IMG/VR virus record: IMGVR_UViG_2660238269_000006
DNA length: 47,498 bases
Source of the DNA: a virus
Taxonomy: Duplodnaviria > Heunggongvirae > Uroviricota > Caudoviricetes
Reading direction: 5' to 3' (one strand)
In this document: positions 18,779 through 19,371 of the stretch, one piece after another
Position numbering within the stretch: position 1 is the first letter of the stretch
Layout: each line of letters starts with the position of its first letter
Notes under the pieces: generated by a model
The model's input: the letters and a program-made list of their open reading frames with translations, nothing else
What the model was told of the DNA's origin: nothing
The model's database searches: none
Position numbers and translations under genes: made by a program

Positions 18779-19210
18779 ATGTTTGGTATTTTCAAAAAGA
18801 AAACCCGCAGAGCAGCAGCGGAAATTAAAAAGTTTGAGAAACGTGATCTGGCACAGGCGGTTATTAATGCTGCCTATCTGGTGGCCTATGCAGATGGTGA
18901 ATGTGAGGCTTCAGAGAAAGCGAAGATCGAGCAGGTCTTGCGTAACCAGCCAGCGTTGTCCGCGTTTACGTCAGAAATTAATGCTATCAGTGCCACGATC
19001 ACAGGTCAGCTTGACACCAACTTTAAAATTGGTCGTCGAGCGGCGTTGCGTGAAATTGAAGATGTGAAACACGATACGCGTGAAGCGGAAGATGTGCTGG
19101 ATGTGGCGGTGGCCATTGCTGAAGCAGATGGTGAAATTGAGCCGGAAGAGCGTAAGGTTCTGGAAGAGATTGCTGGTGTTCTTGGCCTGCGACTGGAGAA
19201 CCACCTGTGA
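18779..19210 (+). CDS. TerB-like domain protein (143 aa)
   Basis: Two A-x-A-DGE-like motifs (AAYLVAYADGECEASEKAKI and VAVAIAEADGEIEPEERKVLEEIAGVLGL) typical of the TerB fold; RBS AAGGA upstream. Confidence 0.5.
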   Translation: MFGIFKKKTRRAAAEIKKFEKRDLAQAVINAAYLVAYADGECEASEKAKIEQVLRNQPALSAFTSEINAISATITGQLDTNFKIGRRAALREIEDVKHDTREAEDVLDVAVAIAEADGEIEPEERKVLEEIAGVLGLRLENHL

Positions 19211-19371
19211 CGGTAAAACTGCGTCTGGCCGCTGTGGCACTCCTGCTGTTTCTGGTGGTGATGGTGGATTTCACCAGCAGGATCATGTCGGTGCTGGCGG
19301 ATGGAGTGCTGGTGGTCGGTATTGTGGTGGTGCTTTTTCCTTTGGTGAAAAAGGACATGCCAGGTAGTTAG
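19207..19371 (+). CDS. Small two-helix membrane protein (54 aa)
   Basis: GTG overlapping the TerB-like stop (GTGA); highly hydrophobic (LRLAAVALLLFLVVMV...VLVVGIVVVLFPLV). An in-frame ATG at 19261 would give a 36-aa version. Confidence 0.3.
   Translation: MTVKLRLAAVALLLFLVVMVDFTSRIMSVLADGVLVVGIVVVLFPLVKKDMPGS

Follow-up and report, generated by a model that had tools for sequence, protein, structure and literature searches.

The phage gene pair tciA–tciB and a conserved leader RNA upstream of it

What use does a phage have for a TerB-family protein and a tiny membrane peptide, carried in the slot where related phages keep the Shiga toxin (stx) genes? The question arises at positions 18,779 to 19,371 of IMG/VR record IMGVR_UViG_2660238269_000006, a 47,498-nucleotide (nt) stretch of DNA from a virus of the Caudoviricetes; this whole stretch is what we call the window. 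Judged by sequence matches, the two genes are the already-named phage pair tciA and tciB, known from phage P1 and assigned to families of their own (PHROG 632 and 1470; Pfam TerB and DUF3927), and pointing out the pair again adds little. The unexpected part lies directly 5′ of it. This is a strongly covarying RNA that stands before several unrelated late-region cargo genes and offers a handle on cargo expression.

The tciA–tciB pair

18779–19210, + strand: tciA, encoding a stand-alone TerB-family protein of 143 amino acids (aa) that starts MFGIFKKK and has a basic N terminus
19207–19371, + strand: tciB, encoding a 54-aa DUF3927 peptide with two hydrophobic helices

The initial annotation, made from the letters of the sequence, had described a TerB-fold protein followed by an overlapping open reading frame (ORF) for a hydrophobic two-helix peptide, and that description holds. 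TciA matches Pfam TerB (PF05099) over residues 26–138 with an E value of 1.4e-16 and 61.2 bits, against a cut-off of 24.4. A profile of its homologues aligns at near full length (residues 12–137; E 3.2e-13) with the solved TerB of Klebsiella pneumoniae, 2JXU. The AlphaFold2 model of TciA (predicted local distance difference test score 86) is all-helical, with seven helices and a basic N terminus modeled at low confidence. When the model was compared with the PDB by Foldseek, the TerB-like structure 2H5N came first (probability 1.00, template-modeling score 0.55–0.65), followed by 2OU3. The protein carries two acidic motifs of the general form A-D-G-E-x-E-x-x-E, namely A38-D-G-E-C-E-A-S-E46 and A116-D-G-E-I-E-P-E-E124. 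Across 30 homologues E46, G118 and E124 are invariant and D39, G40 and D117 at least 90% conserved; in a 10-sequence alignment D39, G40, E46, D117, G118 and E124 are all invariant. There is also weak profile similarity to DUF533 (E 2.8e-05, below the cut-off) and to the DjlA model (E 8e-07, far below the cut-off).

TciB matches Pfam DUF3927 (PF13064; E 3.2e-16, 59.5 bits, cut-off 25). PHROGs places TciA in phrog_632, “tellurite resistance” (1.8e-69), and TciB in phrog_1470, “TciB-like” (1.4e-24), while RefSeq calls them “tellurite resistance TerB family protein” and “DUF3927 family protein”. The GenBank record of phage JLK-2012 annotates both genes as tciA and tciB in the same position. An NCBIfam profile search gave nothing useful for the pair.

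In the window AAAGGA precedes the ATG of tciA, and the GTG start of tciB shares 4 nt with the TGA stop of tciA (GTGA), an overlap that suggests translational coupling of tciB to tciA. A 167-aa reading of tciA from a GTG at 18707 was considered and rejected as the start, because the N terminus MFG.FKKK is kept in homologues, P1 TciA included.

A structured leader RNA before tciA

18642–18778, + strand: type-1 tciA leader RNA, about 130 nt (about 136 nt from terminator to start codon), covariance-model match of 152.6 bits
18653–57 with 18664–68: helix P0
18658–65 with 18743–50: helix P5
18676–83 with 18724–31: helix P1
18684–88 with 18765–69: helix P2b, anti-Shine–Dalgarno CCUUU against Shine–Dalgarno (SD) AAAGG
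18692–99 with 18753–60: helix P2
18704–12 with 18735–43: helix P3
18709–13 with 18717–21: alternative hairpin P4

The leader is nearly invariant among prophages whose tciAB coding DNA has diverged by about 11%. Across complete Escherichia coli genomes 780 of 809 records keep it at 95% identity or more, with the coding region only 80–90% identical in 667 of 811. It can be recognized 5′ of tciA in prophages of Franconibacter, Pantoea and Pseudescherichia and in an Erwinia jumbo phage, and the leader of phage CharmingMan is 82% identical although its TciA protein is only 43% identical. A DNA pattern built from the leader only recovered 120 IMG/VR stretches. Over all the loci examined, a TciA ORF follows the leader at 203 of 207 occurrences; three of the four exceptions are loci with an IS66 insertion and the fourth is a contig end. 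In locus L046 (497–2913) an IS66-family element of three ORFs on the opposite strand has inserted exactly between leader and tciA, where it would uncouple the gene from its leader.

Covariation was tested on 69 hits (65 distinct) aligned under guidance of the model, with slid pairing partners and 500 shuffles as controls. Standard pairs form in 95.6% of cells against 34–51% in the slid controls, and two-sided changes occur in 24 of 40 pairs, compared with 4–11 in the slid controls and a shuffled mean of 8.0. Not one of the 500 shuffles reaches the observed value on any of five measures. Helices P5 and P1 are paired in 99.1% and 96.6%, though both were absent from the model that made the alignment. 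Compensatory changes are found among leader variants in six helices, and an alignment-free helix survey agrees. P0 is GCGCC/GGCGC, with UCGCUU/AAGCGA and ACAUC/GAUGU as variants. P5 joins the P0 loop, CGCYCGG, to a distal CYGRGCG. P1 reads CCACAGAG/CUCUGUGG and varies to CCGCAGAG/UCUGCGG and CCGUAGAG/CUCUACGG, and P2 reads GGGUGAGC/GCUCACCC with an extension that differs between clades. P3 has 9 to 13 pairs, whose sequences are wholly different in some clades, and the short hairpin P4, which competes with P3, also covaries. The leader is a conserved structured RNA, and compensatory changes back it.

How it folds is a subtler matter. P1 crosses both P2 and P3, and P5 uses the loop of P0, so that the RNA would be either pseudoknotted or switching between two states. 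The nested consensus from RNAalifold contains P5, P1 and P4 and not P0, P2 and P3; both sets covary. The invariant CCUUU can pair with the Shine–Dalgarno AAAGG, extending P2, and because both strands are invariant this pairing carries no covariation evidence. By this pairing of SD and anti-SD the leader probably gates translation of tciA.

Could such conservation arise with no RNA function at all? A recombination joint, a promoter or a small upstream ORF might be kept similar by exchange between prophages. Lambdoid phages are, after all, mosaics with conserved junction sequences, the near-identical E. coli copies could reflect recent exchange, and the single-sequence minimum free energy z-score of the leader is only −1.8. 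Yet an origin of this kind fits poorly with a leader that spans genera and reaches a jumbo phage, with compensatory changes in six helices and so many two-sided pairs, or with two helices that pair almost perfectly outside the model that aligned them. The second leader subtype described below keeps the same architecture with other helix sequences. Indels in the leader are not multiples of three, and no convincing promoter was seen when it was checked by eye. We regard an explanation without RNA function as decidedly unlikely.

A search of 18642–18781 with the Rfam 15 covariance models, at E values up to 10, found no family and only chance terminator-like hits nearby, and literature searches found no description of the leader or of a TerB-linked RNA motif. 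The leader was also considered as one of the Pas small RNAs (sRNAs) of the Zhu, Shabalina and Storz preprint. It is a different element, since the preprint puts PasA to one side of the esterase and PasD, which is similar to STnc100, to the other. As far as the tools and libraries we used show, the structured leader is undescribed.

A second leader subtype

The leader model also gave weaker matches, of 38–42 bits, 2.5–3.5 kb downstream in five loci. These we call type 2. All lie after lysis genes, and the window contains none.

L092, 4925–5046: type-2 leader
L110, 4972–5096: type-2 leader
L138, 3691–3815: type-2 leader
L181, 157–281: type-2 leader
L087, 8443–8563: type-2 leader

Type-2 leaders retain P0, P5, P1, P3, P2 and the anti-SD/SD pair, with helix sequences that differ from those of type 1. 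A type-2 pattern recovered more than 120 further IMG/VR viral contigs, and the gene 3′ of the leader is usually a J-like FN3 protein of 260–330 aa (phrog_13555; 83 cases) or a glycosyltransferase (phrog_1579; 18 cases). Since unrelated genes follow the leaders, the element is a module that late-region cargo genes have in common and not a sensor specific to TerB. The diversity of these downstream genes makes a metabolite riboswitch less likely and a general control element more likely, one whose cue might be temperature, some phage factor or where the transcript started.

We would put somewhat short of an even chance on the fuller proposal: that the two subtypes belong to a new family of pseudoknotted leader RNAs gating translation of late-operon cargo genes, with a trigger that might be temperature, an ion, a phage factor or the promoter of origin. 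If true, the late-region cargo of lambdoid phages, in a position class that also hosts stx, has a dedicated layer of post-transcriptional control.

TciA and TciB across phages and bacteria

The initial annotation had proposed two tests of its reading, a TerB profile match and conservation of the small ORF beside TerB homologues, and the pair passes both. For the second we built our own hidden Markov models (HMMs) of TciA and TciB and applied them to loci recovered with a TciA alignment; a tblastn search of TciB against the phage collection had given no match, probably because of the low-complexity filter, and the HMM was used in its place. Of 80 IMG/VR loci, 79 have a TciB ORF that touches or overlaps the stop of TciA, and the odd one out is truncated. 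It adjoins TciA in 16 of 21 species-representative genomes, plus one divergent case. The taxa with TciB beside TciA are Franconibacter, Pantoea, Pseudescherichia, Buttiauxella, Dryocola, Serratia, Symbiopectobacterium, Pectobacterium, Oceanisphaera and a Bilophila metagenome-assembled genome (MAG). Among phages, a clear TciB follows TciA in P1, in CharmingMan and in the virulent N4-like phages FSL SP-076 and Pollock, and in the Erwinia jumbo phage ChrisDB the TciA homologue is followed by a divergent two-helix ORF of 59 aa.

Other genomes place something different in the same position. Candidatus Pantoea communis has a divergent two-helix ORF there; the same locus (L091, 3843–7085) holds, no more than about 2 kb from the main tciA, three further weak TerB-like ORFs that score 25–31 bits with the TciA profile. 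In Pseudomonas juntendi and a Paracoccus MAG the position is taken by a different ORF of 67–68 aa with one hydrophobic helix, similar between the two, which may be an alternative membrane partner. These ORFs (L096, 5441–5644, and L102, 5398–5604, respectively) overlap the TciA stop, do not belong to DUF3927 and conserve a C-terminal C..YGY..ER...P.VGC.VKT..G.V.R.ELR.

The TciB family is small, with 51 clusters at 50% identity matching among 1.84 billion representatives. The 93 unique TciB sequences conserve a core, LLFLVV.VDFT(S/G)(R/K).MS(V/I)LADGVLV; its DFT(S/G)(R/K) motif marks the turn, and ADG belongs to helix 2. With basic residues at its two ends, the peptide would form an N-in/C-in hairpin that turns at DFTS on the periplasmic side and has an aspartate within helix 2. 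Three ORFs that fuse TerB to DUF3927 (P0004, P0066 and P0251) were considered as Rosetta-stone evidence and set aside as frameshift or chimera artefacts.

The stx slot and expression of the pair

15268–16089: Q, upstream of the cargo slot
16123–16186: terminator-like hairpins after Q
17762–18013: three tRNAs, between Q and methylase on one side and cargo on the other
18622–18650, + strand: terminator-like hairpin (stem 18622–18642) and T-run, directly 5′ of the leader
19872–21839: nanS-p-like esterase, after the cargo

The order in the window, Q, methylase, three tRNAs, cargo and nanS-p-like esterase, is that of the stx slot, and the initial annotation had called the pair unusual cargo for this position. 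The E. coli genomes say otherwise. A megablast survey with the 593-nt pair found tciAB in 807 of 5426 complete genomes (15%), at 2727 places (per genome, median 4 and at most 8); among the matches listed, every full-length one is annotated as tciA and tciB genes. Phage JLK-2012 has the order Q, three tRNAs, tciA, tciB, a yjhS-type esterase, S, R and Rz, and both O157:H7 Sakai and the asymptomatic-bacteriuria strain 83972 carry tciAB between the post-Q tRNAs and the SASA esterase and holin. Stx2a phages share with the window the flanks of the cargo and not the cargo itself. With flanks alone shared by Stx2a phages and the same slot filled in Sakai and 83972, tciAB is, judging by gene order, an alternative and routine occupant of the stx slot. 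The pair ranks among the commonest uncharacterized phage accessory modules in E. coli, with several copies in enterohaemorrhagic strains, and it occupies a slot that carries Shiga toxin genes in related phages.

In lambdoid phages tciAB sits downstream of Q and its terminator-like hairpins, with no predicted promoter of its own; a simple and admittedly crude sigma-70 scan of the window found no site between the upstream terminator and tciA. Terminators after Q, another terminator 5′ of tciA and the lack of a predicted promoter mean that expression should depend on Q-mediated read-through, and so tciAB should be expressed in induced cells and not in the lysogen.

The hairpin 5′ of the leader has relatives. 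One of its type stands 5′ of tciA in JLK-2012, Sakai and 83972 as well, in each case as a single copy directly between the tRNAs and the leader. The window has a near-copy after the last tRNA, at 18026–18045, and the two copies flank two small ORFs, 18103–18327 (a partial match to phrog_2571) and 18380–18589 (phrog_4280). Given the single copy elsewhere, these ORFs look like an extra cargo insertion that duplicated the terminator.

What the pair might do

The explanation we favor, at even chances of being right, is that tciA–tciB is a membrane-associated accessory operon of lytic growth. It would comprise a cytoplasmic TerB-family protein and a coupled two-helix inner-membrane DUF3927 peptide, with the leader RNA before them and an STnc100 sRNA after. 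The pair would be made in the lytic program, which in lambdoid phages would reach it by late-promoter read-through and in P1 through the C1-repressed ban operon, with the leader gating tciA translation through pairing of the SD with its invariant anti-SD. TciB would insert as a hairpin with both ends in the cytoplasm and anchor or partner TciA at the inner face of the membrane.

TerB-like domains recur at the cytoplasmic face of the inner membrane, in TerB with TerC, in DjlA and in YebE; the weak matches of TciA to DUF533 and DjlA, below their cut-offs, agree with this. The plasmid ter operon has been linked to phage inhibition and to resistance to pore-forming colicins. TciA–TciB would be the counterpart of TerB with TerC, and of DjlA and YebE with their TerB-like domains tethered to the membrane, and the complex would stabilize or modify the inner membrane of the infected cell. 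The likely phenotype would be protection against insults directed at the membrane, among them DNA injection by superinfecting phage, pore-forming colicins or depolarization, and not that of a host-killing toxin. In this specific protective phenotype we place less confidence than in the explanation as a whole.

Some of the support comes from where different phages keep the genes. In P1 they lie behind a C1 operator and the ban promoters, in virulent N4-like phages among replication genes, and in Erwinia jumbo phages the TciA homologue lies in a tRNA region. Expression during lytic growth in such different phages would indicate a general accessory role at the inner membrane. That P1, lambdoid and N4-like phages all carry the pair, and jumbo phages a TciA homologue, suggests that it serves some general need in the course of infection. 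In P1, tciA, tciB and tciC are non-essential by CRISPR interference (PMC10695390), as expected for an accessory gene.

Several observations pull the other way. The TciA homologues of two Marinomonas genomes, Pseudomonas phage PMBT3 and Vibrio phage K481 lack a membrane ORF on their downstream side. Thermodynamic modeling with nested folds makes the SD just a little less accessible than it is in shuffled controls (0.34 vs 0.41). Gene order and a simple scan for promoters are the only guides to when tciAB is expressed. In the P1 GenBank record the tci name was itself assigned “by homology”, and a search of the literature on DUF3927, TciA and TciB found no functional study, other mentions being annotations or expression changes.

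The initial annotation had suggested that the pair could be an abortive-infection-like module. Spelled out, TciB would be a small membrane-depolarizing toxin, held or triggered by TciA as a TerB-domain sensor, and would protect the lysogen population from other phages in the manner of a toxin–antitoxin pair. The attraction is easy to see. TciB has the size of small hydrophobic toxins and a tight coupling to TciA, published defence systems such as Shango include some with TerB domains, and prophages often carry defence genes, to which the link between the ter operon and phage inhibition can be added. But PADLOC returned only PDC-S48 for TciA, at E 0.0021 over 35 residues, and nothing for TciB. 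The pair would probably be silent in a lysogen, with no promoter predicted between terminator and tciA and with C1 repression in P1, and a single genome tolerates as many as eight copies. The strictly virulent N4-like phages that carry the pair, and the Erwinia jumbo phages with TciA and a divergent partner, have no lysogen to protect, which argues against abortive infection. We think this role unlikely.

The RefSeq name invites another idea, that the pair is a minimal TerB system conferring tolerance of tellurite, oxidants or metals on the lysogen. TciA is a true homologue of ter-operon TerB, with the acidic DG...E motifs conserved. There is, however, no terC, terD, terZ or terA near the pair, which is surrounded by tRNAs, two small ORFs, one sRNA and an esterase, and we know of no demonstration that TerB alone confers resistance. 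The late-operon position argues against expression in a lysogen, and the virulent phages form none, so that lysogenic stress resistance seems to us very unlikely.

A part in lysis timing, with TciB an antiholin-like or holin-interacting peptide and TciA its regulator, is suggested by the lambdoid loci, where tciAB sits close upstream of the holin–endolysin cassette (112 nt upstream of the holin in strain 09-00049), and by class II holins, which typically are small membrane proteins with two helices. Against it, neither Pfam nor PHROGs gave a holin family match for the pair, the ban operon of P1 and the replication genes of N4-like phages are far from lysis genes, and P1 dispenses with tciABC. 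This we take to be highly improbable.

Neighbours of the pair

19437–19645, + strand: STnc100-family sRNA gene (Rfam RF02076, 170.2 bits, E 1.9e-39)

The STnc100 gene lies in the spacer between tciB and the esterase, is not part of the pair and ends at a terminator-like hairpin, 19614–19635. STnc100 and PasD sRNAs have been linked with TerB-carrying prophages (preprint 10.64898/2026.05.13.724894). No + strand ORF of at least 30 aa that might be a tciC starts between 19371 and the sRNA at 19437.

Homologues of tciA adjoin tRNA genes in very different phages: P1 (L003), ChrisDB (L105), JLK-2012 (L001) and the window, with its tRNAs at 17762–18013. P1 has tRNA-Asn and tRNA-Thr upstream of tciA and tRNA-Ile downstream, the ChrisDB leader begins 3 nt after tRNA-Cys, and in lambdoid phages the leader lies downstream of two or three tRNA genes. 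The adjacency could be either a coincidence arising from a common accessory region or a functional link.

Elsewhere in the window, the − strand ORFs 12858–13157 and 13163–13483 match by offset two genes of the near-identical strain CFIAFB20190167, annotated there as a RelE/ParE toxin and a ParD antitoxin in the early region of the prophage.

Comparison with known systems

The closest counterpart is tciA–tciB–tciC of P1 (AF234172), a record we take to be that of Lobocka et al. 2004. As in the window, a TerB-family protein of 141–143 aa is directly followed by a 54-aa DUF3927 peptide. The two TciA proteins are 42–52% identical. P1 TciB scores 76 bits against a TciB profile built with P1 TciB included, and the DFTS...LSDG motifs are common to both. 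In both phages tRNA genes adjoin the tci genes and function is inferred by homology only. The surroundings differ. In P1 tciC, tRNA-Ile and ban follow tciAB, behind the C1-controlled ban promoters, whereas the window has no tciC. P1 also lacks the structured leader, and its C1-repressed ban operon contrasts with the putative Q-dependent late operon of the window.

For the leader, the nearest comparison is with SD-sequestering 5′ leaders, namely RNA thermometers and translational riboswitches. As in these, the SD can pair with an invariant upstream anti-SD, with competing helices nearby. Unlike them, the tciA-type leader matches no Rfam family and precedes unrelated cargo genes.

T4 Imm is a small phage membrane protein that excludes superinfection, and the analogy with TciB is a functional one only. 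Each would be a small, non-essential inner-membrane protein made during infection, TciB in temperate and virulent phages alike. Imm has no TerB partner, and the likeness is by description and not by sequence. DjlA and YebE (DUF533) resemble TciA through weak profile similarity, below the cut-offs, and through the theme of a TerB-like domain on the cytoplasmic side of the inner membrane. Their membrane helix is fused in cis, whereas the one that would serve TciA comes from a separate, apparently coupled gene; TciA has no J domain.

TerB is reported to work with a membrane partner, TerC. TerB of K. pneumoniae, from terZABCDE, shares with TciA its family and size, an all-helical fold and paired acidic motifs. 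The window has none of the other ter genes, and the partner there would be a 54-aa hairpin peptide in place of the multi-pass TerC. Unlike terB, tciA is phage-borne, in what would be a lytic-cycle transcription unit.

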